Below the pieces are notes generated by a model that saw only the letters and a list, made by a program, of their open reading frames with translations, did no database searches and had not been told where the DNA came from. A stretch of DNA of 64,000 nucleotides from positions 32,001 through 96,000 of the IMG/VR virus record IMGVR_UViG_3300045988_160259, one strand, 5' to 3'. Made by a program: the position numbers and the translations under genes. The DNA is from a virus. The first letter of the stretch is position 1, and the number at the start of each line of letters is the position of its first letter. Below, in pieces: positions 3,177 through 44,300 of this stretch.

Positions 3177-3204
3177 ATGTATGTCTCCTTTTATAAAAAA
3201 ATAA

Positions 3205-3287
3205 TACCGGCAGCGAGACTCGAACTCGCACTGCTCATAACAATCTGGGCTTAAACCAGATGTGTCTACCAATTCCACCATACCGGC
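3205..3287 (-). tRNA. tRNA-Leu(UAA): tRNA-Leu (anticodon UAA), long variable arm
   Basis: Manual cloverleaf: acceptor GCCGGTA/TGCCGGT (2 GU), anticodon arm TCTGG-TTTAAGC-CCAGA, T arm GCGAG-TTCGAGT-CTCGC. Confidence 0.85.
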
Positions 3288-3322
3288 ATACGGAGGCACT
3301 GCCTCCATTCGCTAATTATATA

Positions 3323-3412
3323 CGGAGCCTGTAGGATTCGAACCCACGCGCCGCTATTAACGGCCTATCAGTTTTCAGGACTGACCTCTTCAACCAACTT
3401 GAGTAAGACTCC
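3323..3412 (-). tRNA. tRNA-Ser(UGA): tRNA-Ser (anticodon UGA), long variable arm, C at position 33
   Basis: Acceptor GGAGTCT/AGGCTCC, anticodon arm TCAGT-CCTGAAA-ACTGA, T arm GTGGG-TTCGAAT-CCTAC; loop has C instead of the usual U33. Confidence 0.8.
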
Positions 3413-3421
3413 AAACAAAAA

Positions 3422-3505
3422 TGGGCAGAGCAGGAGTCGAACCTGCGGTGTTTCTAATGTAACGGATTTACAGTCCGTCGCTATCGCCACTAAGCACATC
3501 TGCCC
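3422..3505 (-). tRNA. tRNA-Tyr(GUA): tRNA-Tyr (anticodon GUA), long variable arm
   Basis: Acceptor GGGCAGA/TCTGCCC, anticodon arm ACGGA-CTGTAAA-TCCGT, T arm GCAGG-TTCGACT-CCTGC. Confidence 0.85.
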
Positions 3506-3547
3506 ACAAAAATAGGAGAGTAAACCGAAATATTGGATTCACTCTCC
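3506..3547 (-). terminator. rho-independent terminator after DUF262 gene
   Basis: GGAGAGT/ACTCTCC 7-bp hairpin (3515-3547) followed on minus strand by TATTTTTG. Confidence 0.6.
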
Positions 3548-5377: not shown

Positions 5378-6448
5378 TTATAAATCAGACAAGGATTTTT
5401 GTTCGACTTTCCTTATACCGTCTTCACAAAAATATTTTTCAAACTCTTCATCAACTTCAATATCCTTATACACACTTACCATGTCAAGAGAAGACCATCC
5501 TATAAGCATCTGAATAACGTTATCCGGTAGACCACTGCGAGAACAAGCAGTCGTAAAGAAATGTCTGAGACTGTGAAAGTAGAAGTCAATTCCTAAAATT
5601 CTACTAAATGTTTCAGCCCAACTATTCAGTGTCTTTGCACTCATTGGTTCATCTATATATTCTCCATTCTTTTTCTTTGGGAATAGCCATTCTGATTCAA
5701 TTCCATGTTCTTTTCTATAATTCATCCATAAATCAAAATATGGTTTAAATGGTTTTGAAAGAACATATGCTGTTAGCATTTTTCCACGACTTCCACGCCC
5801 TTTAGTTTTTATTTTTTCTGGAGTTTTATATAGAGATCCATAAATGATATTTTTGTCATCGAAGTAATTTACCTTAAATCTCGGTAATTCACTTTTTCGA
5901 CGTCCAGAATTCATTGCTAAAGATAACATACAAGCCTTATCAAATTGTTGCTTTTCTACAAGATAATCAAGTAAATTTTGTAATTGTTCTTCCTCTAAGA
6001 CAGTTTTTACCATAACTTTTTCATTTACCGGATTTTCTATTTTTCTAACAATTGGACGATAATTTTCAAATTCATCATCCAACATATTTTCAACATAATT
6101 AGAAAGTGATGAGAGAGTGGATTTTACTCGTCTCATTCTAGCAGGACTCCATTTCCATTCCGTTAAACAGTAACTTTGATATTTTGAAATATCTCTCTTA
6201 GACAATTCTACAAAAAATTTGTTGTTGCAATGCTGTAACAAATATACCCAAAATATTTTTAGGTCATTCTTATACTGATCGATCGTTGATCCTGCTCTGT
6301 CAACCGATCGGAGATAATCAAGAAAATCATTTCCTAAATCTATATTCTCTGGATTAACCTGAGCTAATAATTCATTTGTTACAATACTATTGCGTTGGAC
6401 TTTTCTACCTGCTATTTTTCTCACTTCCTTCCAAAATAAAAGAAGCAA
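5378..6448 (-). CDS. tyrosine recombinase / phage integrase family protein
   Basis: ORF track; C-terminal HSLRHFFTT ... LIGWSSLDMVSVY fits the R-H-R-Y catalytic signature. Confidence 0.85.
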   Translation of the reverse strand: MLLLFWKEVRKIAGRKVQRNSIVTNELLAQVNPENIDLGNDFLDYLRSVDRAGSTIDQYKNDLKIFWVYLLQHCNNKFFVELSKRDISKYQSYCLTEWKWSPARMRRVKSTLSSLSNYVENMLDDEFENYRPIVRKIENPVNEKVMVKTVLEEEQLQNLLDYLVEKQQFDKACMLSLAMNSGRRKSELPRFKVNYFDDKNIIYGSLYKTPEKIKTKGRGSRGKMLTAYVLSKPFKPYFDLWMNYRKEHGIESEWLFPKKKNGEYIDEPMSAKTLNSWAETFSRILGIDFYFHSLRHFFTTACSRSGLPDNVIQMLIGWSSLDMVSVYKDIEVDEEFEKYFCEDGIRKVEQKSLSDL

Positions 6449-6470: not shown

Positions 6471-7121
6471 CTAAACTAATTTCATAAAATTGCTACATGG
6501 TTGATTTGTATTTTCTGTTATTTCGATGCAAATATTCCGCAATCCTTCAATTTCTTTCCCCTTTTTAACTCTTACGACAGAAAATATATCCCTTCCTTTC
6601 AACCAAGGATTAGGTTCATTGGAATAACCGTTATATAAAGGTTCTCCAACAACAACCATTCTATTTAACTCTGATTTAATTTCTTTCATTCTTTTTGAAT
6701 CTTCTTCTTTTGAATATTTGTGTTGTTCTTCATCATACTCAATAATCATATTTAATTCTGGCATGAAAAAATCAATTCTATAATTTAAAATTTGATATTG
6801 CGATATAATTATTTCGGATGGAAACATTTCTCTTAATAAACACTCAAATTTATATTCAAATCTTGGATTCATAGCAGAATATATGTATTTGGTATTTAAA
6901 ATATTTAACCCTTTATTAGTTAAAAAATAACACCGATATTTTTTATTCCTTGAGTTCTTATAGCTATGTAAAATAAAATCAGATTGCAAGGCTTGGTTTG
7001 TTTTAATAATATTATCAATATCTCTTAAAACTTGATCGTGCCTTTTTCCAAACTTTTCTGCAATATCATTGCTACTTGCTACCACTTGCCCTTTTTCTTC
7101 TTTTAAAATAATTTCGTTCAT
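6471..7121 (-). CDS. Rha-family regulatory protein fused to a restriction-endonuclease-like (DUF559/Vsr-like) domain
   Basis: ORF track; VVASSNDIAEKFGKRHDQVLRDI (Rha N-terminus); YRIDFFMPELNMIIEYDEEQH (PD-(D/E)xK-like). Confidence 0.7.
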   Translation of the reverse strand: MNEIILKEEKGQVVASSNDIAEKFGKRHDQVLRDIDNIIKTNQALQSDFILHSYKNSRNKKYRCYFLTNKGLNILNTKYIYSAMNPRFEYKFECLLREMFPSEIIISQYQILNYRIDFFMPELNMIIEYDEEQHKYSKEEDSKRMKEIKSELNRMVVVGEPLYNGYSNEPNPWLKGRDIFSVVRVKKGKEIEGLRNICIEITENTNQPCSNFMKLV

Positions 7122-7154
7122 TATATTTTGGTTTCTCCTTTTGCTAAGAAATAT

Positions 7155-7203
7155 ATTTTTTAGAAAAGGAGAATTGGTTGGTAATTATCCAACAAAGTTC
7201 TCC
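7155..7203 (-). terminator. rho-independent terminator downstream of tRNA-Trp
   Basis: Nested hairpin GGAGAA..GTTGG..CCAAC..TTCTCC (7168-7203) followed on minus strand by TTTTCTAAAAAA. Confidence 0.6.
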
Positions 7204-7354
7204 ATTGCTGGTGTGATAGGAACATACCCTATACATTCGTTCCACCAATAGAGATGAGATAGGAGAGCATTAACCATCCTATATTACTCATTACCAGGTT
7301 ATCCACCCGTCTCTAATCATTTATTCTCTGCACTCATTTGCAGAAAATTGTAAA

Positions 7355-7426
7355 CAGGAAGCCAGGGATTCGAACCCTGATTAACAGTTTTGGAGACTGT
7401 CGTGTTACCAATTACACTAACGACCT
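7355..7426 (-). tRNA. tRNA-Trp(CCA): tRNA-Trp (anticodon CCA) with two adjacent acceptor-stem mismatches
   Basis: D arm GTGT/ACAC, anticodon arm ACAGT-CTCCAAA-ACTGT, T arm CAGGG-TTCGAAT-CCCTG; acceptor AGGTCGT vs GCTTCCT leaves T4-T69 and C5-T68 unpaired. Confidence 0.65.
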
Positions 7427-7430
7427 GTAT

Positions 7431-7463
7431 TTGAGTGTGTAAGCTGCAGTCTTACACACTCAA
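7431..7463 (-). other. 13-bp perfect hairpin between CDS stop and tRNA-Trp 5-prime end
   Basis: TTGAGTGTGTAAG (7431-7443) / CTTACACACTCAA (7451-7463); no T-run, so processing site or structural element rather than classical terminator. Confidence 0.6.
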
Positions 7464-7468
7464 CAAAA

Positions 7469-8071
7469 TTATAAATAAAAACTTTTCAAAATCTCAGATA
7501 GACGATCCTTACTAACCTGTTCAGATGACCAATATGAAATAGAACTATATCCATTCTTATCATGCTTGCTACATGTAAATCCTTGTCCATCATCAGAGAA
7601 ATCTACATCCATAGAATCGTCCTTGGATCGTGAATCACAGTCGTAGTCATCACAATCATGGTGGTCGATCATATGGTCAGAGTTATCACTAGATTCTTCT
7701 TTCGTGATTTCAAATTCATATTTCATATCCGATTCAAAATATTTAACGCATTTAGAATTTGCATTTTCATCAAAAAATACAAATTTTGGGGATAGCATAC
7801 AATATCTTCCATCCAATTTTAGCTTCTCGCAAAATATTTCATCACACACAATACTGATAACATATTCGTCTTCATAGTTATCCCACTCAGGATCTGCTAA
7901 CTCAACAAATTTTAGATCATAATCGTAAAATACCAATTCTCTCAAAATTTCTTTTGCATTATCATACTTAGCAACAAAACTTACGTTTCGATCACAATCA
8001 TGTAGTAGCTCATAAGTCTCGACAACTACTTCGACTAATTCTTCGATACTTTTGCATTTCAATGTATGCAT
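7469..8071 (-). CDS. hypothetical acidic protein
   Basis: ORF track; co-oriented with neighbours, D/E/C-rich C-terminal half. Confidence 0.7.
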   Translation of the reverse strand: MHTLKCKSIEELVEVVVETYELLHDCDRNVSFVAKYDNAKEILRELVFYDYDLKFVELADPEWDNYEDEYVISIVCDEIFCEKLKLDGRYCMLSPKFVFFDENANSKCVKYFESDMKYEFEITKEESSDNSDHMIDHHDCDDYDCDSRSKDDSMDVDFSDDGQGFTCSKHDKNGYSSISYWSSEQVSKDRLSEILKSFYL

Positions 8072-8089
8072 ATAATCACCACCGATCTA

Positions 8090-8362
8090 TTAGAGAACAG
8101 CCTCTTTAAGAGCAGTAGCTGCCTTGAATTTCGGTGCTTTATAAGCAGCAACCATAATTGGTTCACCAGTCTGAGGATTACGTCTCTTAGATTCTGCCTT
8201 TTCTACAACCTTGAATTTTCCAAATCCTGCGATATTTACAGATTCTCCCTTAGCCATTGCATCTTTAATGGTAGCGAAAACGGCATCTACATATTTTGCT
8301 GCATCTTTCTGGGTTACTTCTAAGTTTGCTGCTACGGTTTTAATAATATCTTGTTTGTTCAT
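8090..8362 (-). CDS. hup: HU-family nucleoid DNA-binding protein
   Basis: MNKQDIIKTVAANLEVTQKDAAKYVDAVF ... GFGKFKVVEKAESKRRNPQTGEPI is a classical HU sequence; start moved to ATG 8362 (AAGGAGA upstream). Confidence 0.9.
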   Translation of the reverse strand: MNKQDIIKTVAANLEVTQKDAAKYVDAVFATIKDAMAKGESVNIAGFGKFKVVEKAESKRRNPQTGEPIMVAAYKAPKFKAATALKEAVL

Positions 8363-8852: not shown

Positions 8853-9930
8853 AGTTTAATTCAACAGGATAAAAAGCCTGTACCCCTTTATCTGTACAAA
8901 TACATACCATCTGAGATGGTTTTCCTGTTAATCTTTTTTCCACAGTGTGCTGATCTCCACATCCAGCTAAAGATCCACCTCGAATCATTTTTACTCCATT
9001 CACTTCATCAAGAGCACACGTATGTAAATGTCCATATAACACAGCGTATGGAATGTATCCAATCGCCAGACACAAATTTTGTACACCAGATTTCCCAAAT
9101 GGATCAAAATCACCATGCACACCAACATATGTTTTTCCACGGATAGATATATCAACAATTCCCGAATCGAGATTTCTTGTCAAAATATGAAAATTATTGA
9201 TATGCTGTAAAGATAAATCAACTGCCCAACTAATCAAATCATCTAACCGTTCGTCATGAATTGCATCTTCTTTTCTATCAATTCTTGTATGGTTTCCAGA
9301 CACGTTTGTCATGAATACGACTTTAAAATATTTGGTCAACTCATAACAAAATGAAGAGATGAGTTCCGTTGCAATTTTAATCTGTTCAATTACATTTTCA
9401 CGATTAGTTACTTGGATTGTTTTATGAATATTTCCTGATATGAGATCTCCTTGTAGAGATACATAACACCTTTCAGAATTATGTAGTTTTTGGATAGAAA
9501 TGATGTTATCTAATAATTGTTGCATTCTGTCTTTAGCAATATCAGTATTATATTCTCCAAAGAATGAATGAAATGTCTGACCGATATGTAAATCACTTAA
9601 AATTACAAGCATATCATTATCAGATGATATAGAAACGTCATTATGTTTAGAAAAATTTACTTTTCCAAGATCGCTCAATTGTTTTTCTAATAGATCTAAT
9701 TTTTGCTCAATTCTAGCATCAATATAATTTTGCTTTTGCCAAGCGTTTCTTTCATCTCTAAATTGAATTTTTAATCGCTCTAATTCTCTTTGTGCAAACC
9801 GAATATCTTGCAACTGTTTATCAGAATCAACAAACATATCACGATTTGCATTCAGCATTCGATCAAATGTCGCTTTATCCTTCCGAAATTTTGATTCTCC
9901 ATAATGAGTTCCAAGTAACTCATTAAGCAC
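8851..9930 (-). CDS. calcineurin-like metallophosphoesterase (SbcD/Mre11-like fold)
   Basis: ORF track; VILSDLHIGQ, GDLISGNIH, GNHTR, GHLH motifs; reading frame stays open and protein-like for 36 more codons upstream without a canonical start. Confidence 0.8.
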   Translation of the reverse strand: MLNELLGTHYGESKFRKDKATFDRMLNANRDMFVDSDKQLQDIRFAQRELERLKIQFRDERNAWQKQNYIDARIEQKLDLLEKQLSDLGKVNFSKHNDVSISSDNDMLVILSDLHIGQTFHSFFGEYNTDIAKDRMQQLLDNIISIQKLHNSERCYVSLQGDLISGNIHKTIQVTNRENVIEQIKIATELISSFCYELTKYFKVVFMTNVSGNHTRIDRKEDAIHDERLDDLISWAVDLSLQHINNFHILTRNLDSGIVDISIRGKTYVGVHGDFDPFGKSGVQNLCLAIGYIPYAVLYGHLHTCALDEVNGVKMIRGGSLAGCGDQHTVEKRLTGKPSQMVCICTDKGVQAFYPVELN

Positions 9931-12286: not shown

Positions 12287-12499
12287 TTAGCGATGATATA
12301 ATTTTTTTCTATAATTTTCGAGAAGTCTCATATTATGAGGAGTCTCACACAAATAGAATTTTTTACGTTTATGACATGATTCCGAATGGGATACGCCACC
12401 TTCCGCATAAGGAACTCCATGCTTTACTAAATATTCTTTCTCTTGTTTAGTAATGAGTACTATATTAATGCACACCTTTCGTTTTAAATTTCTTTGCAT
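12287..12499 (-). CDS. hypothetical small basic protein
   Basis: ORF-track ORF 12287..12577 trimmed to ATG 12499 because its N-terminus translates the tRNA-Ile gene. Confidence 0.5.
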   Translation of the reverse strand: MQRNLKRKVCINIVLITKQEKEYLVKHGVPYAEGGVSHSESCHKRKKFYLCETPHNMRLLENYRKKLYHR

Positions 12500-12518
12500 T
12501 TGCCACAAAGATAAATAG

Positions 12519-12592
12519 TTGGGGTGGTAGGACTCGAACCCACGACCGTTCGGATATAAGCCGAATGCTCTCGCCAACTGAGCTACACCGCA
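12519..12592 (-). tRNA. tRNA-Ile(UAU): tRNA-Ile (anticodon UAU)
   Basis: D arm GCTC/GAGC, anticodon arm TTCGG-CTTATAT-CCGAA, T arm GTGGG-TTCGAGT-CCTAC; acceptor TGCGGTG/CACCCCA has one C-C mismatch. Confidence 0.75.
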
Positions 12593-13463
12593 ATAATGCT
12601 ACATAAGTAGCAAAATAAGTACGCTGAGATTAAACGTATCTTCGGAAACCTTTACCGACATTATTTTTTCTTCGGTTATCCACTATATGTTGCTTACGCA
12701 CACACATAGTATCTTCCACAACCGCCTTTTGAGAAGAGGCTTATCTTCTTTACTGTATGACTACTCAAGTTTCATCATTCCATTAACACTGCCGTGCTAT
12801 AAATCTCCGCTAAGAGAACTGTGCAGAATCCGCTTAACACATCCAGATATTGCGTATCTTTCAGTGTGTGTATTACCTCCGAAGAGATTACACATTTTGG
12901 CTGCTTACACCATACAGAGGTACAGACTTTCGCTTTATAATTTGTTTGCCTTTTGCATCAAACCAATTTTTATGTTCTTCCTGAATATACTAATTAATAG
13001 AAACGAAATTGAATACAGAAGACGCGCTGCACCAGATGTTTCGTTATCTTTTGGATAACAAAATCCATCACGCCTTCGTAGCTTTCGGTTATAATCCCTA
13101 CTCACATCCTGCATAAGCTAATTTGGCATCTCTACCAATTCACTTACCCAAATGGACATCGCACTTGTCTAATAAGGACTCGCACTATATATCCTTCTAA
13201 TTCCCCATCATATCTTCATAGGTTCGCGTGAGCTATTCTGTTGCGCAGAAAAATGATTCTCAGCGGTTGCCCCTGAATCACCTTGTTGCTCCCTATTTCC
13301 TGACACTATTTCCACACAGGACTTACTCGTTTTACCGGTATGAAACGGCACTTTTTGAGTGCCTGGGATGTTAGTTTTGCATAGATTGACCAATTTTCAT
13401 GGCGACGAGTTGTAAATTCGCCTTTAATACGCTCACACGCATCTATCTGTGCTATGCCACGAG
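12593..13463 (-). ncRNA. candidate large structured non-coding RNA embedded in tRNA cluster (GOLLD/ROOL-class context)
   Basis: About 870 nt without credible ORF, visibly higher GC than flanks, many hairpins including GNRA-capped (12682-12710) and C(UUCG)G (12877-12886) when read on minus strand; flanked by tRNA-Ile and a CAU tRNA-like element. Confidence 0.45.
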
Positions 13464-13536
13464 TTGCGGGACTACGAGTCGAACGTAGCTTTAGAGAATA
13501 TGAATCTCTCGTGGAACCGATCCAGCATATCCCGCG
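13464..13536 (-). tRNA. tRNA-like element, anticodon CAU, initiator-type C1-A72 end, degenerate D arm
   Basis: CGCGGGA ... TCCCGCA-A acceptor, anticodon arm AGAGA-TTCATAT-TCTCT, T arm CTACG-TTCGACT-CGTAG; the D stem forms only 2-3 pairs. Confidence 0.55.
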
Positions 13537-13624
13537 ATAATACTGGCAAACTATTATATCTGCCAGTAAAAAATAAAACATAAAAGAAAGAGGAGATAAT
13601 TATGAAATTAACATAAAGAATTAA

Positions 13625-13657
13625 CCTTTTTAAAAGGGCGGCAGAGAGTAACCGCCC
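13625..13657 (-). terminator. rho-independent terminator
   Basis: GGGCGG/CCGCCC hairpin followed on minus strand by TTTTAAAAAGG. Confidence 0.65.
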
Positions 13658-13663: not shown

Positions 13664-13960
13664 CTAATTAAAATAATTATTTAATTTTCTGTTATAATAT
13701 CTAGTGATTTTTGGTTTTGCCCAAATTTTCGGTTCACATTTGATATTTTCGTAAGTATGGATTTCATGTTCTGGAATATATTCACATTCCAAACTCAACC
13801 CATCTAAAAGTTTTACCACTGTATTTTCAGTGGGAGTAGTAGAAGATAAGTAGGCAAATACACATTTCTCCATTCGCTTAACAACTTTACGAACGATTGC
13901 TACATTAATATCTTCTTTGCTAGCGATTTCTTTGATAATATTTTCTTGTGTAATTGTCAA
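13664..13960 (-). CDS. hypothetical protein, possibly a divergent HU/IHF-fold DNA-binding protein
   Basis: ORF track (TTG start behind GGGAGGA); helix pattern ENIIKEIASKEDINVAIVRKVVKRMEKCVFAYL and a beta-arm-like C-terminus resemble HU topology. Confidence 0.5.
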   Translation of the reverse strand: MTITQENIIKEIASKEDINVAIVRKVVKRMEKCVFAYLSSTTPTENTVVKLLDGLSLECEYIPEHEIHTYENIKCEPKIWAKPKITRYYNRKLNNYFN

Positions 13961-14077
13961 AATATTATTCCTCCCAGCTGTACGAATTCGATTAGAGAAT
14001 TGTATTAAGATATTTCATCAGGCAATAGCCTATTTATTTATTCTCCATATAGGCACAAAAGAAAACCCATGTGATGT

Positions 14078-14111
14078 GGACTATTTTATTTTTGACTGTT
14101 TAAAATAGTCC
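14078..14111 (-). terminator. 11-bp perfect hairpin downstream of RNA-polymerase-like gene
   Basis: GGACTATTTTA / TAAAATAGTCC; T-rich tract only after a short gap on minus strand. Confidence 0.5.
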
Positions 14112-14152
14112 ACATATAATGGTCGAAAAAAATGCCTTAAGATATGCGGAAT

Positions 14153-16918
14153 TTATCTTTTACGCTTTCTTTCACGGTCTAATTTCTTACGATATTCACG
14201 TTGACAATCATCACATCTTACTGATTTTGACTTAGAATCAACCTCAATCCATTCTCCACAATCCATGCATTGAATAAACTTTGTCGATTTAATTTTGATA
14301 TTATTATTCAAATTATTTACTACATATTGTCCATAACAAAACCAGAAGAGTTGTTTTCCTCTCTTTTCGTTTCCATATAAATATTGAATCAACATATCAG
14401 CAATAACATCTTCTGAATATCCAAAATCTAAAAATTGATTTCGAATAGAACAAGCAACATAATGAAGATTATCAATATATTCATCTTTCATATTTACCAT
14501 ATAACGGTATTCTTTATTGAGCTTATCATATAAATTAGAAACTTCTTTTGAACATACAATATTTACATTGTGCATCATTTTTTGATAATCTAACTTCCCT
14601 AATTTCATTCCTCTTGTGTTTATAGATTTATTAGGGATTTTGTCATATAATTTATTAACAAAACTTTGATTGCGCATACTAACTTGATCAGCTTCTTTAT
14701 CTTTTGCATATTCAAAGAATGCAGGTAACTTCGCGTTCGTAAATTCCTTGATTTCATCATTAATACGATCGGGAAAAGCAGGTTTGTACAAAGTTTTGGC
14801 GTAATCGATCACAAAATTATTCTGACAACATAAGCGTTTTACACAATCAATAGCATGTTGCTTTTCTTCTTCTGACCCATTAATAAATACATCGTTATTC
14901 CAGATCTTTGAAATATTATTACTATAAATTCCAATATTGCCACCGGTAAATGCAGCATTAAGCCCATCATAAATGTTTTGGTTATTCAAAAGTTTTGGCT
15001 CTGCTTTGCGCATATTATAATAAAGAGGAACAATTCCTTCCATATTTTTCTCTGCGATATTCACAAAATTTAGATCTGCAACAACTAAAGATTTATCTCC
15101 ATCCACATCGAACTGTAAAATTTTACTGATCAAATCACGAGTACTGGTATAAACTCCGTTTGTTGTAAACCATTGTCTGATTCTTCGAGATCGTTCCCCA
15201 TATTTCTCATGCGCAACGTTCAAACGAATAGCATGTTCTTTGTAAAGATGTGGGCTGCGGAGACAATCAAGCTTCTCATTTTTGTTAAAAAGCCAACAGA
15301 ATACTTCTTTGTCATTTAGCAACCCTTCTGGGGTATCTATATGTTTAAACCAATATTCACAAGCCGCATAAAAATCCGGTAAAAGGAATGTATATTTCCC
15401 ATGGACTTCAAGTTTCCCGCTGCGATATTTCTTCACAAGACTATTTTTTACTTCACGAATTACATCTTTAGCATAGGTATCATTCAATAATGCAGGATAA
15501 AGTTTTACAGCTTTTTGAAATGGTGTCATATTTGTATTATATGGGGTGATACCTAAAATCTCTTTGACTGTTTTTTCTGAATTGCAAATATTGGTAATTT
15601 TATCAACTGACCTTTTCGTAAGTAAATCAATCTCTTCATCTGTAATATCAGTTAATGTCTGCAACATTTGATAGTTAATTTTTGCATCTTTAATTCTATC
15701 TTCTTCAATATTACACCGACCAGCCTGACAATTATATTTTTTAAAATTATCCTTATACTCATCCCAAGAATCATAAAACTTATACATCTTGAATTGACTT
15801 TTGGTAAAGATAATCCGAATATCATCATCAAAAATATTATACTCTTTGCCGTATATATCTTTGATAGTAGGAGATCCATCATTTACTTCAATAAACTTTC
15901 TGAAATCAAAAACTCCTAATAATCCTTTTACCCATGGCGCACGAAACATAGTATTTTTAGTCATAACTGATGGAAGCATCATACCAGCTCCATCAGTATG
16001 AGGAATCGGTACATCACCAGTTTTTCTTGTAATTGAATAATCCGACTCATCAATAAAATCAAAAGTCCCTGGTACATTCGTTTCAAAATCATCAATTACT
16101 ATACAACGGTCAATATCAAAATCAGTCCACTGGTCAGTTGCAGAATTTGCTAATGCCATATAAGCTAAATGTTTATTTACATTATTACCACCCTTTGAAT
16201 TGATCTTTTCTATTGTAAGGCCACACATAATAGTTTTTTCAACCTTATCCCAAACAGATTCTTTAATAAATACTGCTTTTTTCTTCCTGATTTGCCCAGC
16301 AGAAGAAGTAAAATATCTATATTTTTCACCTTTATATGTAAAACCATAAAAAGAAATATCTTTAAATACATCAAAATAGTAAATTTGAACCACAATTAAA
16401 GCATCCGTCAGTTCATCTTTTTTTATACCGATAGAGCGAGTAAGAGATGATTCAAATACAGAGATAATATTTTGATCTGTTAATTCTTCTTCTCTTAAAC
16501 GTCTTAGCGGGATTTGATTATATGGAATATTTTGTGAAATACAATAACCAATTTTATTAGACAACTTCTCTTTATTAAGAACTTTATTTTTTAGAAGTGT
16601 TAAAAGTTTTTCTTTTGATGCTTTTGCTTTCTTTCGTTTATGTTCTATAATCAAATTTAATCTGACATAATTTTTAACCATATCATTAGTTAGAAGACGA
16701 TAATCTTTTTCTGTATACGCTTTGAATTCTTTAATCTCTTCTAATGTATAACCATTTAAAAGTAGTTCATTTTCTGAATTGGAAAGCATATTATTCACAT
16801 AATTTCGTTCGCTTCTGTATTTACAATTCATTTCATGCAAATATTTTTCATGATTACTGTAAAAATGTCCCGTATCCACAGAATACATATTAATTTGTGT
16901 ATCTAAAATAACTATCAT
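14153..16918 (-). CDS. single-subunit two-barrel RNA polymerase candidate (YonO / cellular RdRP-like)
   Basis: ORF track, 921 aa; CLRSPHLY (like beta-prime RAPTLH) then QFDVDGDK (DxDGD metal site, nt 15095-15109); upstream SSAGQIR, HTDGAGMM, FRAPWVKG, TKSQFKMY resemble RdRP/YonO blocks; C-terminal CxxC...CxxC. Confidence 0.65.
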   Translation of the reverse strand: MIVILDTQINMYSVDTGHFYSNHEKYLHEMNCKYRSERNYVNNMLSNSENELLLNGYTLEEIKEFKAYTEKDYRLLTNDMVKNYVRLNLIIEHKRKKAKASKEKLLTLLKNKVLNKEKLSNKIGYCISQNIPYNQIPLRRLREEELTDQNIISVFESSLTRSIGIKKDELTDALIVVQIYYFDVFKDISFYGFTYKGEKYRYFTSSAGQIRKKKAVFIKESVWDKVEKTIMCGLTIEKINSKGGNNVNKHLAYMALANSATDQWTDFDIDRCIVIDDFETNVPGTFDFIDESDYSITRKTGDVPIPHTDGAGMMLPSVMTKNTMFRAPWVKGLLGVFDFRKFIEVNDGSPTIKDIYGKEYNIFDDDIRIIFTKSQFKMYKFYDSWDEYKDNFKKYNCQAGRCNIEEDRIKDAKINYQMLQTLTDITDEEIDLLTKRSVDKITNICNSEKTVKEILGITPYNTNMTPFQKAVKLYPALLNDTYAKDVIREVKNSLVKKYRSGKLEVHGKYTFLLPDFYAACEYWFKHIDTPEGLLNDKEVFCWLFNKNEKLDCLRSPHLYKEHAIRLNVAHEKYGERSRRIRQWFTTNGVYTSTRDLISKILQFDVDGDKSLVVADLNFVNIAEKNMEGIVPLYYNMRKAEPKLLNNQNIYDGLNAAFTGGNIGIYSNNISKIWNNDVFINGSEEEKQHAIDCVKRLCCQNNFVIDYAKTLYKPAFPDRINDEIKEFTNAKLPAFFEYAKDKEADQVSMRNQSFVNKLYDKIPNKSINTRGMKLGKLDYQKMMHNVNIVCSKEVSNLYDKLNKEYRYMVNMKDEYIDNLHYVACSIRNQFLDFGYSEDVIADMLIQYLYGNEKRGKQLFWFCYGQYVVNNLNNNIKIKSTKFIQCMDCGEWIEVDSKSKSVRCDDCQREYRKKLDRERKRKR

Positions 16919-16926: not shown

Positions 16927-17165
16927 TTAATTAACTAGAATATTTCCAAATATATCCAAACGCTGTTTTTGATTCCCTTTGCAACAACTTAATATGGATG
17001 AAGTTTGTTCTAAACTTATATCTAAAGTATTTGAAATTTCTTTTGTAGAAGACCATGTCTTTATAAAATTTTCATCTAGATCATACTGCTCTATCTTTTT
17101 ACCTTTTAAGATTGAATTTTTTCCACAACAAATATATATTGGACTTTCTATTACATTATCTTCAT
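16927..17165 (-). pseudogene. out-of-frame NUMOD1/IENR1-like DNA-binding module continuing the LAGLIDADG gene
   Basis: Frame -1 relative to the 17166..18125 ORF reads ...GKKIEQYDLDENFIKTWSSTKEISNTLDISLEQTSSILSCCKGNQKQ; no start codon of its own. Confidence 0.5.
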
Positions 17166-18125
17166 TTACAAAACAAATGTATATCCATGATATTCACAAC
17201 GTTCATGATACAAACACTGAGTAAAAGAAGTTCTGGAGATATGTTCTCCTAAGATCGATTTGCTTTCTCTTTCTAATTTTCTACGATTATCACATGTACC
17301 TATGTATTCTCCGAATTTATATATATTAAACGCTTCATTACAAACTGAATTTCTATGTTTATATGAATAATCCATAGATTTCTGTTTATTAGATATTTCT
17401 TCTTTAAGTAAAAGGTATTTTTGATACTTTCGTTCAAGATAGATTGTTGATCCTTCATACAACCAATCTAAGATTTTTTCTACTATATTATTACCATCAA
17501 TTAATAATGTATAATTATCATGCCCATTATCCCATCTGCTATGAATATCACCTACAAATTTAACTACATTTTTATTTAAATATTCCTTTGTTTTGTTAAT
17601 AAATGCGGAAGTTCCTGTAAAAGTAATTTGAAAATGTATATAATTTTTTCTGAATTTACTTTTTGATTTTCTTACACTTCCAGATATACTTCCATCTCCA
17701 TCCAAATAACCTCTAAGAAAATGATGAATTAAATTATTTGGAACAATTTCTTCGGAAGGAAATATAATTTTAAACGTTTTTCTTGGCGGACAACCCAACT
17801 TGATTAAATCATCTACTATTTGGTCACTTCGAAAAGACAACCTACACATATCTCTGGTAAAATTGTAGTCTCTATTTTGATATTTAAAAAATTCATTCCT
17901 TTCGTAAATATGTCTTTTTATAGGGCATTCATTATTCATTTCTTCTGCTATGGTTTTTAATAAAGCTACATCCTTGTATTTTAAATCTAGTTTTGCCCAC
18001 TTGCTAGATCCACTATTTGAATAAACACATCCATCTGCATATAATAATCCAAGAATATATGCTTTTCTTTCTGTGTCAATTTTATTAAAATAATTATCAT
18101 TTATATTATATTTTCTATTTTTCAA
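17166..18125 (-). CDS. LAGLIDADG homing endonuclease (double-motif)
   Basis: ORF track; YILGLLYADGCV and FLRGYLDGDGSI motifs; C-terminal NUMOD1-like repeat. Confidence 0.85.
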   Translation of the reverse strand: MKNRKYNINDNYFNKIDTERKAYILGLLYADGCVYSNSGSSKWAKLDLKYKDVALLKTIAEEMNNECPIKRHIYERNEFFKYQNRDYNFTRDMCRLSFRSDQIVDDLIKLGCPPRKTFKIIFPSEEIVPNNLIHHFLRGYLDGDGSISGSVRKSKSKFRKNYIHFQITFTGTSAFINKTKEYLNKNVVKFVGDIHSRWDNGHDNYTLLIDGNNIVEKILDWLYEGSTIYLERKYQKYLLLKEEISNKQKSMDYSYKHRNSVCNEAFNIYKFGEYIGTCDNRRKLERESKSILGEHISRTSFTQCLYHERCEYHGYTFVL

Positions 18126-18216: not shown

Positions 18217-18621
18217 TTATTCCTCCAAAATCTTATATTCTCCATCATCAACACAGATAATAATTCCATACTGATGTAGCTCTAAATCATTAAACATACC
18301 ACAAACTTGAAGATAGTCTTCAGAAATGTTTTTCAATTTAATACAATGAATTTCACCATCATATTTAATTGCACCAAGCATTTCATTCTTTTCATTGATT
18401 GCAAAAACAACACAATAATTGCAATCTTGAGTATCTACAAGCTCATAACAAAAATCATAGATGTCATCATCATTTTCAAGTAAAACATTCATTTTCTCAC
18501 CACATCCGCATTCACAAACTGGCGCACATAACATGTTATATTCAGGATCTAATCCAAAATCCTTAAGTTTCAAGTTTTTAAAATTCCATACAAAATCTAT
18601 AATATTTGTATTAATATTCAT
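18217..18621 (-). CDS. hypothetical Cys-rich protein
   Basis: ORF track frame; start moved to ATG 18621 behind AGGAGGA; ATGA overlap with upstream stop. Confidence 0.7.
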   Translation of the reverse strand: MNINTNIIDFVWNFKNLKLKDFGLDPEYNMLCAPVCECGCGEKMNVLLENDDDIYDFCYELVDTQDCNYCVVFAINEKNEMLGAIKYDGEIHCIKLKNISEDYLQVCGMFNDLELHQYGIIICVDDGEYKILEE

Positions 18622-19058
18622 ACTAAATCCTCCTGTGTTACACATTCATAAGCAAAGCCTTCATTTGTAGTATAGTAAATGTGTTTTATGCCTAAATCCT
18701 TGATGGCAGCCATACATGACGGACATGGCCTAGACATACCATAAGGTTTATCATTTCGTTTTCGATATATATATAATTTTACTTTGGAAAAATCTATATC
18801 CAGATGTCGGATGGAATTGATACAGCTAATTTCTGCATGTATTTTAGGAAGAAGTGTTTCCTGATCAACGTCAGTAATTCTATATTTGTTATAATATTTC
18901 TGTACTGGATGTGTTTTGTTGGTATTACAACCAATGCCAATAATATTTCCCTTATATACTGCTACACAACCAATATGTACGTTTTTATAATCAGAAATAT
19001 CTGCAGCCTGTCTTGCTTTAGATAAATATCTACGATCAGTTTTAGTAAACAAACTCAT
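18618..19058 (-). CDS. dCMP / cytidine deaminase family zinc enzyme
   Basis: ORF track; HAEISC ... PCPSCMAAI zinc-binding signature. Confidence 0.85.
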   Translation of the reverse strand: MSLFTKTDRRYLSKARQAADISDYKNVHIGCVAVYKGNIIGIGCNTNKTHPVQKYYNKYRITDVDQETLLPKIHAEISCINSIRHLDIDFSKVKLYIYRKRNDKPYGMSRPCPSCMAAIKDLGIKHIYYTTNEGFAYECVTQEDLV

Positions 19059-19391: not shown

Positions 19392-21251
19392 TCAACATTT
19401 CATCTTTTTAACGCTATCTCCAAGTTCATCAATAAACGGACTAGGATTCATCAGATTATCATTGTATGATGCAGTAGAAGAGAGATATAATTCATTCTCT
19501 GCTCTTGTAATTCCGACATATAATAACCTGCGTTCGTCATCGAGATTATCACTTTTTGCATGTGGGAGCAGTCCATCATTTAATCCAACAATAAACACGA
19601 TTGGATATTCCAACCCTTTTGCTCTATGAATTGTTGAGAGATGTACTTTATCATTATTCTCCATTGCAACTTGTCTATTGATGTCATCTAAGTACAATAT
19701 AAACTCATTTAAATCAGAATACTTTTCTGCAATATTCTGAAAAGCATCCATATTTTCAATCTGTTCCGAAAATCCACCATCATCAGCCTGTTTACCCTTG
19801 CTAACAAAATCATCGATTTTAAGATAGAATCTCAAGTATTCAATCATCTTACCAACCGACTCGAATTTTCTGTTCTGTAGTGTATTAATAACTTCATATA
19901 ATTGATCAATTCCATTTTTGAAACGCCAATTTCTACGATCAATCGTAAACATTGCGTTGTACAAAGAAGTGTTTTTCTTCGTAGCATTTTCCTTGACTTC
20001 AGCGAAAAATTTCTGATATAACCAACGATTTGGTTTATTATACACATACGAAAATGCTGAATTATCTCCTTCGTGCAATGCCAATTTAAGATAGGAGATC
20101 AGTAACTTAATCTCTGGTAGTTCCGTAAACATGACCCCATTAACAACGTCATATGGAATCATATTTTTAGACATGACAGTTTGCAATATTGTCAACTGGG
20201 CATTTGTCCTTGCTAGAACAGCCATGTCTCTATACTCATTGTTCTCTCTTTTCTCTGTGATCTTTTTACAAATCCAAGAGGCTTCGTCATATTCACTTAC
20301 AAATTTTCTATATTCAGGGAGCTGATTCTTTCCTTTAGAAGCAATACTTTCTACGTAATTCTTATCCTTACTGTCAGGAATATGCTGCGCCAACATATTC
20401 GCCATACGTACAATATCTGTACTACATCTGTAATTCGTGTTTAAATGGACGATTTTCACATCAGAATAGTCCTGATCAAATTGCATAATGTATTCGCTGC
20501 GTCCACCACGAAAAGAATAGATTGCCTGTAAAGGATCACCTACAATCATAGTGTTTTTATTATTAATTCTTTTAAGAAGAAGAGACTGTGCCATAGACAC
20601 ATCCTGAAACTCATCTGATAACACGTAAAGATATTTATTCTGATAAAATTTTAAAATATCTTGGAATTTGTCAAAACACTGATTTGCCATATTCAGGAAA
20701 TCATCAAATTCAATATAGGACTTATCCTTTTTATAATCTTCGTACATTTTATAAATCTTTTTCATCCGATCATCAGGATACGGATCGTCATCTGAATAAA
20801 TCAAACTATCTGTTGACCCTAACATATTTGTCTTTTGAATTCCCAAAAATCTCAGTATTCCATTATAAGGAACATCATCTTTGTTCTTGCATAATCCAAG
20901 TAAATCACAACAAATTTCTTTCAGTGCTTTTTCTTTTTCCCAAGATGCAGTCCATACCTTGTATTTTCCATATCCATATGTAGAAGTAATAATTTTAAGA
21001 GCGAGAGAGTGAAAAGTTTCTACATTTACACCCGTTACTCCAAGTTTTCCTAATCTCTGCTCAATGCTTTCTTTTGCCTTTTTACTGAACGTGACAGCCA
21101 AAATAGTAGTGGGATCAATTCCATGATTCTTAACCATGTTTAAAATTCTATATGTAAGTACAGATGTCTTTCCAGATCCAGCTGCAGCAATGACAACCAT
21201 ATTCCCGTCTATGGTGTGAATGGCTTCTTTTTGGTTTGTATTAAATTCCAT
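19392..21251 (-). CDS. UvrD/PcrA/Rep-type superfamily 1 DNA helicase
   Basis: ORF track frame; start moved to ATG 21251 (AAGGAGA upstream); AAAGSGKTSVL Walker A, DEFQD, TIHRAKGLEYP, VGITRA motifs. Confidence 0.9.
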   Translation of the reverse strand: MEFNTNQKEAIHTIDGNMVVIAAAGSGKTSVLTYRILNMVKNHGIDPTTILAVTFSKKAKESIEQRLGKLGVTGVNVETFHSLALKIITSTYGYGKYKVWTASWEKEKALKEICCDLLGLCKNKDDVPYNGILRFLGIQKTNMLGSTDSLIYSDDDPYPDDRMKKIYKMYEDYKKDKSYIEFDDFLNMANQCFDKFQDILKFYQNKYLYVLSDEFQDVSMAQSLLLKRINNKNTMIVGDPLQAIYSFRGGRSEYIMQFDQDYSDVKIVHLNTNYRCSTDIVRMANMLAQHIPDSKDKNYVESIASKGKNQLPEYRKFVSEYDEASWICKKITEKRENNEYRDMAVLARTNAQLTILQTVMSKNMIPYDVVNGVMFTELPEIKLLISYLKLALHEGDNSAFSYVYNKPNRWLYQKFFAEVKENATKKNTSLYNAMFTIDRRNWRFKNGIDQLYEVINTLQNRKFESVGKMIEYLRFYLKIDDFVSKGKQADDGGFSEQIENMDAFQNIAEKYSDLNEFILYLDDINRQVAMENNDKVHLSTIHRAKGLEYPIVFIVGLNDGLLPHAKSDNLDDERRLLYVGITRAENELYLSSTASYNDNLMNPSPFIDELGDSVKKMKC

Positions 21252-21267
21252 TTTTATATCTCCTTTG

Positions 21268-22347
21268 CTAATTAATTTGAAGTGTGTATTCATCTTCAAC
21301 TTTACGTTTATTAATTCTCTTCCCAAGATATTCGGTTTCATTGTTTATTGTCATTTCGCACAACCCCTTAAAACACAGGGAATAATCATCTTTGCTTTCA
21401 TAGATCGTATATTTTCGAGGTGATTTATCAAAACGTTTTTGAGCATTGCCAATAATCATCTCTGTGAAAGTATCATTAAATTTTTTGATAATATTGGATT
21501 GATGTGGAAATTGATTTAGAACAAAACTACATTTGTCAAGATCGATGTAATAAGCTTCATATGACTTATAGACAAGTTTGATTTTGCGTTTATATAATTC
21601 ATCTTTGATGGCTTCGTTAAATCGTTGTGATTTTTTGCTGTAATATCTTTCTGATGCATTTGTGATATTTGCTTTTTCATCAGCAACCTTAATACAAGCA
21701 GCATAAAAATCCATATCTTCTTTGGACGCCTCTCTAGTTTCCAATTTAATATTTGCATGAACAACTCCATCCGAATCGATTTCAATCATCTCGTCTGATA
21801 CTTCAGAAGTGATCTTGTACACATCACGCCAGATGATAAGACCTGCGGATTTAAGATAATCCAGAGCATTCATAATATAATACTCAATCATATCATCTGA
21901 TTTATTATAAAATTCATTAATAGTATCCAGTTCGTATTTAATAGCTCTGCTAGTTTCCTCTTTATTATATTTACAGAGATTATAATTTTGGTTGACCATA
22001 TTGATTTCTCTGGCCCATTTGCCAAGCGTGATATCAATTTTTCGATTCTGATCATGTCCATTAATAATTTTTTCCAGTAATAGTGGAACAATATATTGAT
22101 ATAGAGAAGTATTCATCTTCTTAAAATTAGCTGGTAAGATATATGGATAGACTTCTGTAATTTCATATTCTCTTTTACCAAGATCAACAATTTTACAGTA
22201 TTTGGACATTTTTTCCAAAAGAGTCCTTTTGTTCTTTGTTAGGAGCTTACCATTTTTGATGTACGACTCCTTAACAGCAGGGCTTGCATACTTGTTTACG
22301 AGATCAATTTCTTTAATTTTCCCTTGTTTTACAACCATTTTTTCCAT
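21268..22347 (-). CDS. hypothetical protein
   Basis: ORF track; 359 aa, no motif recognised. Confidence 0.75.
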   Translation of the reverse strand: MEKMVVKQGKIKEIDLVNKYASPAVKESYIKNGKLLTKNKRTLLEKMSKYCKIVDLGKREYEITEVYPYILPANFKKMNTSLYQYIVPLLLEKIINGHDQNRKIDITLGKWAREINMVNQNYNLCKYNKEETSRAIKYELDTINEFYNKSDDMIEYYIMNALDYLKSAGLIIWRDVYKITSEVSDEMIEIDSDGVVHANIKLETREASKEDMDFYAACIKVADEKANITNASERYYSKKSQRFNEAIKDELYKRKIKLVYKSYEAYYIDLDKCSFVLNQFPHQSNIIKKFNDTFTEMIIGNAQKRFDKSPRKYTIYESKDDYSLCFKGLCEMTINNETEYLGKRINKRKVEDEYTLQIN

Positions 22348-25912: not shown

Positions 25913-25944
25913 AATCCCGACATAGGGAAGAAAGGTTGGTAATT

Positions 25945-26466
25945 ATGATTAAATTTGAAAACAACAACAGTATCGTAGCAGATAACAGCATCGTTTTAAA
26001 CGGTGTTCGTGAGTATAAACTCACAGATGATGAGACGATGAAACTGATGTCTATCATTGACGGTATGATCTCTCAGAGATCTACCACAGGAGTATCTACT
26101 CCATCCACTCAGCTCTCACGGTCTGATGGAAAAGTTGGCGGTATCACTCGTGCCAGCAAAACGCCTTACGAGGCGAAAAAGGCTTTCAAGCCTCAGTACG
26201 AGGTGAAGAAACTTGCAGACGCTGACGGTAAGTCTCTGTTCTGCATCAGCCGTAAAAACGGCTGGACGAGAGCTGAAAAAGCGTTGACGAACGCTGCTAT
26301 CAAAGCTCTCCCGGAGATTATTACAATCTCCGTGCCGTATGAGAAAGACGGCAAGACCAGGACTTTCTCAGCCTGGGGTTATAAGACCAAAAAACGGGCT
26401 GAGGAGATGCTGGAGCAGCTCCCGACTGAGTTTTCAGCAGACGAGCTGAACAACTGGGGTAAGTAA
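25945..26466 (+). CDS. hypothetical protein (GC-richer than genome average)
   Basis: ORF track frame; ATG 25945; its stop codon lies in the loop of a GNRA-capped hairpin (26456-26473) and no terminator follows. Confidence 0.7.
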   Translation: MIKFENNNSIVADNSIVLNGVREYKLTDDETMKLMSIIDGMISQRSTTGVSTPSTQLSRSDGKVGGITRASKTPYEAKKAFKPQYEVKKLADADGKSLFCISRKNGWTRAEKALTNAAIKALPEIITISVPYEKDGKTRTFSAWGYKTKKRAEEMLEQLPTEFSADELNNWGK

Positions 26467-26473: not shown

Positions 26474-27688
26474 AGCTCGACTAGGCGAGGTTAAACAGCT
26501 GTTAAGCCTAGTGCGTCCCGGTAGTAATACCGGGGGTCAGATACGCTATAGTATCTATATATTATATACGTAACATGTTCTTTGCTACGTTCTGTCTTTC
26601 CAGCGTTATAGCTGGTTTCGACATATGAAATATTCCAAAAAAATTAAATAAATCCCTGATACCCCGTAGAGGAAAGTTAGGCGTTTCTCGAACGGTTTAC
26701 GTCATGGGACGGCATCAAAAGACGCAATTTAAGGCGTCCTGTTTATGCTAGACATACGTCAGATAAACCGACTGACGCAGTTATAAACAGGAAAACTGCC
26801 AATAAAGGAGGTGTGCGTGATGCAAGAACATGAGTAAATCTAGGTTTTGCGGACAAGTCTTTTATTAGGACAAGGAAGCATGTCATACGTTGGATATAGG
26901 CTTTCAGGGGGGACAAACTGGTGGGAGCCAGTCTAGGTGGAGAGGTCAATCAAACTATCTCGGCATAGAATAGTTCGGATAAACCGAAGATGAAGACCGA
27001 AGAAAGTGGTGGTCTTAAGGTCGGCGTATGTATAGGCTAATACAGCTATACGTTCTCATCCTAGTACAAAAATGGCAAGTGATTGACACAACTTGTCATC
27101 ATAAAAGCGTCTCAAGAGACGGTATTCTCAGTCATGATTTAGAGAAATCGTTTCCAGGATAAAGCGTTCTAACGCCAACGAGGTATAGAACGTGGTTGAC
27201 GCGTTTTCAGTATGGCTGAAAGTAATAAAAACTGATGCCCGCTACTGGTAAACAACGAGATCACGGACTAGAAAATAGTGGTATTGACCGTAGAAGCTTG
27301 GATGAAAAATGTGACTTGGATATTTGTCTTGAGAGACGCAGGTAGCACACAAGAGCCGGTGGTGACACCGATACGAAGTGTTTCGTGTGTAGCGTTGATT
27401 GCATCTGTCTGCAATCGTGTGTGAGGTCTGAGCGGTACAATCCCCGACAGTAAATCCTAACTCTAAAGTTCTTTTAAGAACATTGACGGACGTTCTAAAG
27501 TTGATCGAACGTATTGTAATTTAATACGAGTCATCAACAAAACCGTGATTCTCATAATCGGTTTGTGTAAAGAGGTTGAGACAAGTGGAGAACATGCGGC
27601 TGTATCTAGTTTGAGTGACATAAATAGCAGCGTGGCATGGCAGGTACACCGAATAAAGTAGAAAGGTCGGTGTGAGTAAACCCTCCAC
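26474..27688 (+). ncRNA. candidate large structured non-coding RNA / structured 3-prime UTR ending at a hammerhead
   Basis: About 1.2 kb without credible ORF, GC-elevated. Helices include 26517-26534 (GUAA loop), 26738-26791 (9-bp closing stem over nested 6-bp hairpin), 27357-27370 (GUGA loop), 27373-27386, 27397-27416, and long-range 27584-27590 with 27683-27689. Confidence 0.5.
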
Positions 27689-44289: not shown

Positions 44290-44300
44290 AGGTGTTGTAT

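Follow-up and report, generated by a model that had tools for sequence, protein, structure and literature searches.

A probable YonO-family RNA polymerase gene and its GOLLD-containing neighbourhood in a large SPbeta-like phage of gut Lachnospiraceae

The gene dealt with in this study lies in a stretch of 64,000 nucleotides of viral DNA (positions 32,001 to 96,000 of the IMG/VR record IMGVR_UViG_3300045988_160259), which will be designated the window and to which all coordinates refer unless another locus is named. It is an uninterrupted open reading frame (ORF) at 14153..16918 on the minus strand, starting with ATG and with the stop codon counted within the end coordinate. Its product of 921 amino acids (aa) was taken in the original prediction—made from the nucleotide sequence without database searches—for a candidate single-polypeptide two-barrel RNA polymerase (RNAP) resembling YonO of the Bacillus phage SPbeta and the RNA-dependent RNA polymerases (RdRPs). 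Judged by its sequence, the protein is a clear, full-length relative of YonO, and it is very probable that the gene encodes a DNA-dependent RNAP of the YonO family, working as a single polypeptide. This class of enzymes was already known in 2003, its characterisation following in 2017. The gene and its elements are listed below; many of them were delineated using an alignment, named A3, of the query with 102 full-length relatives (103 sequences), which exhibit 32–80% identity to the query.

14153..16918, minus strand: yonO-like gene for the probable 921-aa single-polypeptide two-barrel RNAP (ORF, YonO homology, PF05183, PHROG 8308, AlphaFold, Foldseek)
16535..16855, minus strand: predicted long N-terminal helical hairpin, residues ~22–128, ~80 residues longer than in SPbeta YonO (AlphaFold helices; BLASTP gaps at 25–125)
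15911..16105, minus strand: predicted first barrel region (barrel B, beta/Rpb2-like), residues ~272–336, with D309 (HTDGAG) as well as R326 and K331 (FRAPWVKGLLG) (predicted strands, A3)
15080..15400, minus strand: predicted second barrel region (barrel A, beta-prime/Rpb1-like), residues ~507–613, with R554-x-P556 and the aspartate triad, the codons of which are at 15095–15109 (predicted strands, A3)
14792..14821, minus strand: motif NNFVIDYAKT with invariant N701, D705 and K708, common with cellular RdRPs (VDFAKTG) (A3; aligned to AVDFAKT of RDR2, 7w82_A)
14204..14269, minus strand: putative C-terminal four-cysteine zinc ribbon (C884, C887, C902, C905), present also in SPbeta YonO (A3; hairpins E879–883 and E890–894)

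The relatedness to YonO extends over almost the whole protein. BLASTP against SPbeta YonO (839 aa) aligned residues 5–905 in 903 columns with 43% identity and 62% positives (E=0), and the profile of PHROG 8308—a family of unknown function that includes SPbeta YonO—was covered at its positions 3–845 of 847 by residues 6–911 of the query (E=7e-246). The sole Pfam match, precomputed for most close homologues too, was the RdRP family PF05183 (41.8 bits against a gathering threshold of 23.8, E=7.7e-11), while NCBIfam had no model for the protein. The YonO/RdRP-like assignment was thus borne out by the profile searches together with the BLASTP match. With tblastn, the protein matched 40 phage records, the best among the deposited phages being Clostridium phage D-1873 (51% identity over 84% of the query), followed by about 25 SPbeta-like Bacillus phages with 45–47% identity, including yonO of SPBc2; SPbeta YonO exhibited 46% identity over 84% of the query and the homologue from Psychrobacillus phage Perkons 47%, the more distant matches coming from Enterocloster, Thomasclavelia and Clostridium c-st phages. 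No nucleotide-level match was found among the deposited phages. Metagenome assemblies already hold near-identical copies (97–99%) of the 921-aa protein, and its nearest genome-derived relatives belong to Lachnospira, Roseburia and other Lachnospiraceae metagenome-assembled genomes.

Polymerases of this family are known already and occur very frequently in phages of gut bacteria. At least 3960 proteins were recovered at E<=1e-5 from a collection clustered at 90%, a figure for which only the 8000 candidates with the greatest number of shared words were scored; an exhaustive HMMER scan of representatives at 50% identity yielded 1237 clusters at E<=1e-3, of which 371 reached E<=1e-30. These clusters document that YonO-type polymerases abound in large temperate phages of Lachnospiraceae from the human and animal gut.

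Concerning the sequence motifs, all seven peptide blocks quoted in the original prediction were located in the translation: FTSSAGQIRKKK (residues 203–214), IPHTDGAGMMLPS (305–317), FRAPWVKGLLG (325–335), FTKSQFKMY (371–379), INYQMLQTL (414–422), CLRSPHLY (552–559) and QFDVDGDKSLVV (602–613). The distance of about 45 residues given there between CLRSPHLY and the magnesium site was counted as 43, from the end of the former to the beginning of QFDVDGD, and the numbering D604/D606/D608 proved correct. Each of the blocks holds residues that are invariant across the 103 relatives, and they are therefore not a chance pattern, as is also indicated by the match to YonO with E=0; moreover, every N-terminal block has its counterpart in YonO according to BLASTP, in agreement with the resemblance that had been suggested. 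SPbeta YonO likewise possesses all the motif blocks, the aspartate triad, the R-x-P and the C-terminal CxxC...CxxC.

Alignment A3 contains twenty invariant columns, corresponding to K249, Y253, D309, G310, R326, K331, G332, S374, K377, Y416, Q417, D515, R554, P556, D604, D606, D608, N701, D705 and K708; the cysteines C884, C887, C902 and C905 are conserved in at least 90% of the family. A set of eight residues common to all two-barrel RNAPs has been defined by Ruprich-Robert and Thuriaux (PMC2919709), namely D709, R738, K743, R962, P964, D1007, D1009 and D1011 in Qde1, and D837, K979 and K987 of Rpb2 with R446, P448, D479, D481 and D483 of Rpb1 in RNAP II (PMC2919709). Their counterparts here—D309, R326, K331, R554, P556, D604, D606 and D608—show no variation in A3. 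It should be noted that the residues were mapped to Qde1 and RNAP II by pattern and spacing, the residue-to-residue mapping of barrel B being one of pattern; the spacings R-5-K, R-x-P and R-50-D compare with R738–K743, R962–P964 and R962–D1007 of Qde1. The comparison of CLRSPHLY with NRAPTLH of the beta-prime subunit holds in that it contains the invariant R554-x-P556 of the universal set (PMC2919709), and the DxDGD proposed as the magnesium site corresponds, as DVDGD, to the Mg-binding triad of the same set, invariant in the 103 homologues. In the BLASTP alignment, D604, D606 and D608 of QFDVDGDK coincide with FDNDGDK of YonO, where the equivalent aspartate triad is essential (PMC5467207).

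The three-dimensional model leads in the same direction. AlphaFold supplied with the 103 diverse representatives gave a mean predicted local distance difference test (pLDDT) of 94.6 and a predicted template-modelling score of 0.89, whereas a shallow alignment (40 sequences, 72–98% identity) resulted in an unusable model with pLDDT of 49.5; the long N-terminal helical hairpin (H22–54 and H79–128) was of high confidence in both. There are six predicted strands in barrel B (E272–275, 279–289, 296–306, 311–314, 323–327 and 330–336) and six in barrel A (E507–514, 538–541, 549–553, 562–567, 589–591 and 609–613), the C-terminal domain being helical with a small two-hairpin zinc ribbon. A Foldseek search against the PDB returned nine significant matches, all of them cellular RdRPs—maize and Arabidopsis RDR2 and QDE-1—with E of 1e-17 to 2e-10, probability 1.00, TM-scores of 0.38–0.51, approximately 750–920 columns and 11–13% identity. 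The next ones, beta-prime chains of multisubunit RNAPs, were non-significant (E ~1–3, TM-score below 0.11). Against BFVD, which covers predicted viral structures, the top matches were phage proteins named ‘RNA dependent RNA polymerase’ (E 3e-31). The structural check proposed originally, i.e. the search for two double-psi beta-barrel (DPBB) domains, therefore came out in favour: two six-stranded beta regions carry the invariant residues, and the PDB matches are only RDR2 and QDE-1. From the predicted strands and the whole-chain match, the 921-aa protein is predicted to have two DPBB domains.

The protein might also be an inactive relic, a structural protein or a polymerase of another fold, such as a primase or DNA polymerase. 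Nothing was found in favour of this, the weak points of the assignment being the lack of a sequence-level match in the PDB and of an NCBIfam model, whereas the ORF is intact, all the catalytic residues are kept, the conservation across thousands of homologues is strong and the fold search returned two-barrel polymerases only. Both another fold and a model devoid of DPBB domains, which the original prediction had named as outcomes contradicting it, were looked for and no competing fold was found; the probability of such an explanation is negligible. As far as the sequence searches of the PDB are concerned, the single sequence found nothing and the profile nothing significant, its second match being maize RDR2 (E=0.58); in this sub-threshold alignment SSAGQIR falls on SASQLR, DvDGD on DLDGD and IDyAKT on VDFAKT. 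By these searches, there is apparently no deposited structure of YonO.

The comparison with known two-barrel enzymes raises the question of the template. QDE-1 and RDR2 (PF05183) share with the 921-aa protein the two-barrel architecture, with Foldseek TM-scores of 0.42–0.51 across some 800 columns, and the eight invariant residues, with SSAGQ(I/L)R, DxDGD and (I/V)D(Y/F)AKT aligned; the eukaryotic RdRPs, however, copy RNA in silencing and have neither the zinc ribbon nor the N-terminal hairpin of the present protein. The multisubunit beta/beta-prime (Rpb2/Rpb1) enzymes exhibit the same catalytic principle and the eight residues (PMC2919709), but no significant match in sequence or global structure, and their core of ~400 kDa contrasts with the single chain of the 921-aa protein; for YonO, homology to the trigger loop was not detected (PMC5467207). 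The protein could thus be viewed as an RdRP copying or amplifying phage or host RNA instead of transcribing DNA, given that its sole Pfam match is the RdRP family, that its only significant structural neighbours, RDR2 and QDE-1, are RNA-templated enzymes and that public records list its homologues as ‘RNA dependent RNA polymerase’. In addition, it reaches the Pfam RdRP threshold, which SPbeta YonO does not, so that it is somewhat nearer to the RdRP profile. On the other hand, YonO, the only characterised member of the family (43% identity), shows a strong preference for DNA as against RNA templates and is required for the synthesis of late-gene mRNA (PMC5467207), the ‘RdRP’ labels in databases derive from the Pfam name and not from assays, and the identity to the RdRP structures is merely 11–13%. 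An RNA-copying function is therefore considered improbable, and, because the characterised relative prefers DNA templates, the name RdRP should in our reading not be transferred to the 921-aa protein. Genes of this kind are left unnamed in public records or mislabelled as ‘RNA-dependent RNA polymerase’, and the label is corrected here to DNA-dependent RNAP. Since YonO itself has no Pfam match and the 921-aa protein does, the latter bridges YonO and the eukaryotic RdRP profile and can thus serve in alignments and in structural studies of how two-barrel polymerases arose.

With regard to the surroundings of the gene, 71 viral and several metagenome contigs were compared. In the order of transcription on the minus strand, the yonO-like gene being the fifth, the neighbourhood consists of the following:

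19392–21341, minus strand: UvrD-type helicase gene, upstream (first in order)
18618–19058, minus strand: dCMP deaminase gene (second)
between the dCMP deaminase and LAGLIDADG genes, minus strand: gene for a 142-aa protein (third)
17166..18125, minus strand: free-standing LAGLIDADG homing-endonuclease gene directly upstream of yonO (fourth; Pfam LAGLIDADG_1 and LAGLIDADG_3; PHROG 4645)
14074..14115, minus strand: perfect 15-bp inverted repeat ATGTGGACTATTTTA / TAAAATAGTCCACAT with a 12-nt loop just after the yonO stop (read directly)
13664..13960, minus strand: conserved gene for a 98-aa protein after yonO (sixth; 58 loci)
13632..13657, minus strand: GC-rich hairpin with four T (GGGCGG...CCGCCC TTTT) after the 98-aa gene (seventh; read directly)
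12593..13570, minus strand: GOLLD giant RNA, with the Rfam 3' domain at 12621–13078 and a variable 5' domain upstream (eighth; RF02032, 196 bits vs 150, full model)
12518..12592, minus strand: tRNA-Ile (anticodon TAT), abutting the GOLLD 3' end (ninth; ARAGORN, Rfam)
further on, minus strand: 61-aa ORF, PIN-PhoH, ClpP and yonJ-like exonuclease genes (tenth to thirteenth)
8156–8362, minus strand: yonN-like HU gene, its product 51% identical to YonN (fourteenth)
beyond it, minus strand: tRNA-Trp, antirepressor and integrase genes (fifteenth to seventeenth)

The plus-strand half of the window (25–64 kb) carries replication and recombination genes. The integrases, antirepressor, ClpP, PhoH and tRNAs characterise the window as DNA of a phage or prophage of Firmicutes, and loci of 97–98% identity sit on IMG/VR viral contigs of 125–217 kb, which fits a large SPbeta-like temperate phage; the source is a phage, or prophage, of this type from gut Lachnospiraceae. 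Part of the synteny with SPbeta is retained: closely spaced genes follow 3' of yonO on its strand, among them the yonJ-like exonuclease and the yonN-like HU, and in both cases a long non-coding stretch follows soon after the polymerase gene. Both are large temperate Firmicute phages of roughly 125–215 kb. They differ in the host (Lachnospiraceae here, Bacillus for SPbeta), in the ~80 extra residues of the N-terminal helical hairpin of the 921-aa protein (query 25–125), in the downstream non-coding element—GOLLD here versus the SPbeta leader—and in the gene following yonO, which is HU/YonN in SPbeta and the conserved but unrelated 98-aa gene here. Phage D-1873, the uncharacterised homologue of which (CLG_B2308, ‘conserved hypothetical protein’) shows the best identity among deposited phage genomes, resembles the present locus in having a UvrD helicase gene 5' and PhoH and tRNA genes 3' of the polymerase gene; there, however, HU directly follows the polymerase and Rfam finds a ‘drum’ RNA and tRNAs, no GOLLD. 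The drum RNA is situated ~4 kb 3' of the yonO homologue (positions 12353–12460 of the D-1873 locus).

The 98-aa gene is always found 3' of yonO in this phage clade (58 loci), with 73–85% nucleotide identity outside the window's own species; this is high for a small gene, the neighbouring YonO being 73–80% identical at the protein level. The 98-aa protein has no match in Pfam, PHROG or NCBIfam, and the possibility that it is a divergent HU/YonN was discarded, since BLASTP gave no alignment and hhalign against an HU alignment a probability of 5%. It is a candidate for a partner of the polymerase. The hairpin at 13632..13657, passed over by a simple terminator scan because its T-run has only four T, is likely to mark the end of the yonO transcription unit. 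The inverted repeat at 14074..14115 could be a terminator or an operator; it belongs to the intergenic stretch between yonO and the 98-aa gene (13961–14152), which retains 70–83% nucleotide identity in many loci according to blastn.

SPbeta YonO forms stable elongation complexes and acts as a strict DNA-dependent RNAP requiring the aspartate triad (Forrest et al. 2017, PMC5467207). It is very processive and error-prone, is without RNA-cleavage activity and passes through pause signals that the host enzyme does not bypass; 37 late genes of SPbeta, transcribed from one start site, depend on it (PMC5467207). By analogy with it, the 921-aa protein would use a DNA template and serve late genes in the following way. 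The active site would lie between the two DPBBs of the one chain, where barrel A would contribute R554-x-P556 and the D604-x-D606-G-D608 triad holding the catalytic Mg-A, and barrel B D309 for the second metal, while R326 and K331 would contact the incoming nucleoside triphosphate; the N-terminal helical hairpin, the helical C-terminal domain and the four-cysteine zinc ribbon would complete the protein. After induction or infection, as may be expected from SPbeta, the host RNAP would express yonO, and it would do so together with the 98-aa gene and stop at the hairpin. The enzyme would then start downstream from its own promoter and processively transcribe a long late operon, comprising the same-strand genes and beyond, late expression being thereby freed from the host polymerase. 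The promoter would most likely be just 3' of the 98-aa gene and the hairpin, before GOLLD, tRNA-Ile, PIN-PhoH and ClpP.

Several observations weigh against this scheme. In most relatives, a sigma-A-like TTGGCT-16-TATAAT occurs directly after the 98-aa gene, and the downstream unit may therefore perhaps be read by the host polymerase. No promoter motif common to SPbeta and this clade was identified, the promoter of YonO and its cofactors, if any, are undefined in PMC5467207 and no later paper defining them was found. There are no structural or lysis genes in the window, so that the late operon to be served is not seen, and the gene order after yonO is unlike that of SPbeta, with the HU-like gene 5.5 kb off and not adjacent. 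Finally, the polymerase activity and the transcription role of the 921-aa protein are predicted from sequence and model, the published assays being of SPbeta YonO.

As regards GOLLD, positioned ~1 kb downstream of yonO in the window, nhmmer, run with a profile of four GOLLD 3' domains, detected a GOLLD-type 3' domain in 40 of the 71 related viral yonO loci, always on the yonO strand and ~1–2.2 kb past the yonO stop. Many of these relatives score below the Rfam gathering score, yet they are clear (e.g. 104.5 bits, E=5e-28, in the locus L063). GOLLD is absent in two loci with 76–79% YonO identity (L003 and L005), and none was found within 5 kb in the distant YonO loci (41–49% identity). The association of yonO with GOLLD within this clade is real, and it could be inherited synteny. 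The original prediction had supposed that the enzyme could relate to large RNAs and to conserved intergenic boxes. The former was right insofar as GOLLD does lie nearby, although the link is one of position only and is not supported as it was stated; the latter found no support, since the direct repeats detected across the window formed only short families of low identity typical of AT-rich DNA, none of which could be tied to the enzyme.

The YonO start site of SPbeta has been published at the genome coordinate 2225998 (PMC5467207). The primers of the primer extension map to the SPbeta locus (L001) at 9078–9101 and ~9295–9321, the reverse primer with a one-base indel, which brackets the start site to L001 9102–9295, i.e. 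260–480 nt after the yonN stop and 1.2–1.4 kb before yonK. The late transcript of SPbeta therefore begins with a long non-coding leader, in accordance with the ‘unannotated non-coding RNA’ with which it has been described to start (PMC5467207). By analogy, GOLLD occupies the slot equivalent to the SPbeta start site and leader: after the small gene following yonO and before the same-strand genes.

This leads to the suggestion that the main product of the polymerase in this clade is the GOLLD and tRNA unit, whether by itself or as the late-operon leader, and not late mRNAs alone. The constant strand and distance of the GOLLD-type 3' domain in the window and in the 40 loci, the long non-coding RNA following the YonO start in SPbeta, the hairpin and T-run parting the yonO/98-aa unit from GOLLD, and the rise of GOLLD expression during phage lysis (PMC12286853) are all compatible with it. 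However, the synteny may reflect only the common descent of close phages, L003, L005 and the distant YonO loci lack GOLLD, GOLLD is known also in mycobacterial tRNA arrays (PMC12286853), Rfam does not identify the SPbeta leader as GOLLD, and the host-type promoter consensus precedes the unit in most relatives. Taken together, GOLLD as the main product seems rather unlikely, and it is equally doubtful that the polymerase transcribes GOLLD at all. Tentatively, since the SPbeta YonO start precedes an unannotated non-coding RNA of 1.2–1.4 kb, yonO, the 98-aa gene, the hairpin, GOLLD and the tRNA might be conceived as one functional unit, with the polymerase starting after the hairpin and making the ~1 kb GOLLD nanocage RNA as the leader of the late transcript, and with the 98-aa protein perhaps acting as a specificity factor; the odds are clearly against such a unit. 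If true, a giant ornate phage RNA would have a dedicated polymerase of its own, a minimal, highly processive and pause-bypassing two-barrel enzyme. The fixed position of GOLLD with the SPbeta precedent offers a concrete hypothesis on who transcribes GOLLD and when. The preferred reading thus continues to be that of a YonO-type polymerase transcribing a late operon.

The possibility that the SPbeta leader is a relative of GOLLD or ROOL was rejected, as Rfam at E<=1 gave only DUF3800-VIII and a sub-threshold skipping-rope (47.5 bits, above threshold, and 29.6 vs 36.7 bits; L001 8823–8932 and 10177–10242). Of the promoter motifs that were considered, TATCTCCTCTTTCTTTTATGT (13578–13598, minus strand) resembles TATCTACTCCCTTCTTTTCTGT in the bracketed region of SPbeta and is unique in the window, but it is absent at the equivalent place in the relatives; the common (G)ATAATAGT is unique in each source, but its chance expectation is 0.24–0.5. 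Both can be seen as weak leads. A consensus scan for sigma-70 promoters and terminators gave 40 sites versus 35.5 in shuffled sequence, i.e. no excess.

It should be pointed out that the translation start of the present yonO copy is unusual. The ATG start of the relatives aligns with codon 4 of the ORF, which here is ATT, and the annotated ATG, located three codons before it, directly adjoins the GGA of the ribosome-binding site (16907–16918, minus strand), so that the true protein may be shorter by 3 residues at its N-terminus. The change of the ancestral ATG to ATT, together with an ATG placed against the Shine-Dalgarno sequence, suggests that the initiation may be weak or may use the ATT.

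The LAGLIDADG gene, recognised already in the original prediction as lying immediately upstream, is confirmed by its two Pfam domains and by PHROG 4645, an endonuclease family. It occurs only in four loci of 97–98% identity (L009–L011 and L055), the relatives having a gene for a 112-aa or 346-aa protein in the same slot, and it is therefore, by sequence comparison, a recent, mobile and lineage-specific insertion. In the 247-bp spacer between it and yonO, the stretch 16931–17165 (minus strand) encodes, in another frame and with no start codon, the peptide IEQYDLDENFIKTWSSTKEISNTLDISLEQTSSILSCCKGNQKQRLDIFG. Judged by eye, this peptide is similar to the NUMOD1-like DNA-binding repeat found C-terminally in the endonuclease ORF, and the homing-endonuclease gene may be frameshifted or decaying. 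While the yonO copy of the window is uninterrupted, that of a 73%-identical relative (L069) is interrupted within the DxDGD codons, exactly 3' of the one for D604, by an insertion of ~990 bp (6836–7828 of that locus) with an HNH-like endonuclease ORF, probably therefore a group I intron. Among the family representatives, fragments that stop at residues 604/605 or 704–706 are numerous, and in several SPbeta-like phages a nuclease gene lies between yonO_1 and yonO_2 halves; homing hot spots thus seem to coincide with the two best-conserved motifs of yonO.

The window contains, in addition, a Pistol self-cleaving ribozyme (RF02679) at 26475–26541 on the plus strand (69.5 bits vs 34.5), located just after a 176-aa ORF (25936–26466) near the strand-switch region. 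A tRNA cluster at 3204–3506 on the minus strand comprises Leu(TAA), Ser(TGA) and Tyr(GTA), with Trp(CCA) at 7354–7427 on the same strand. Three recombinase genes are present, two of the tyrosine type (5378–6448 and 57628–58653) and one of the serine type (44292–45149).

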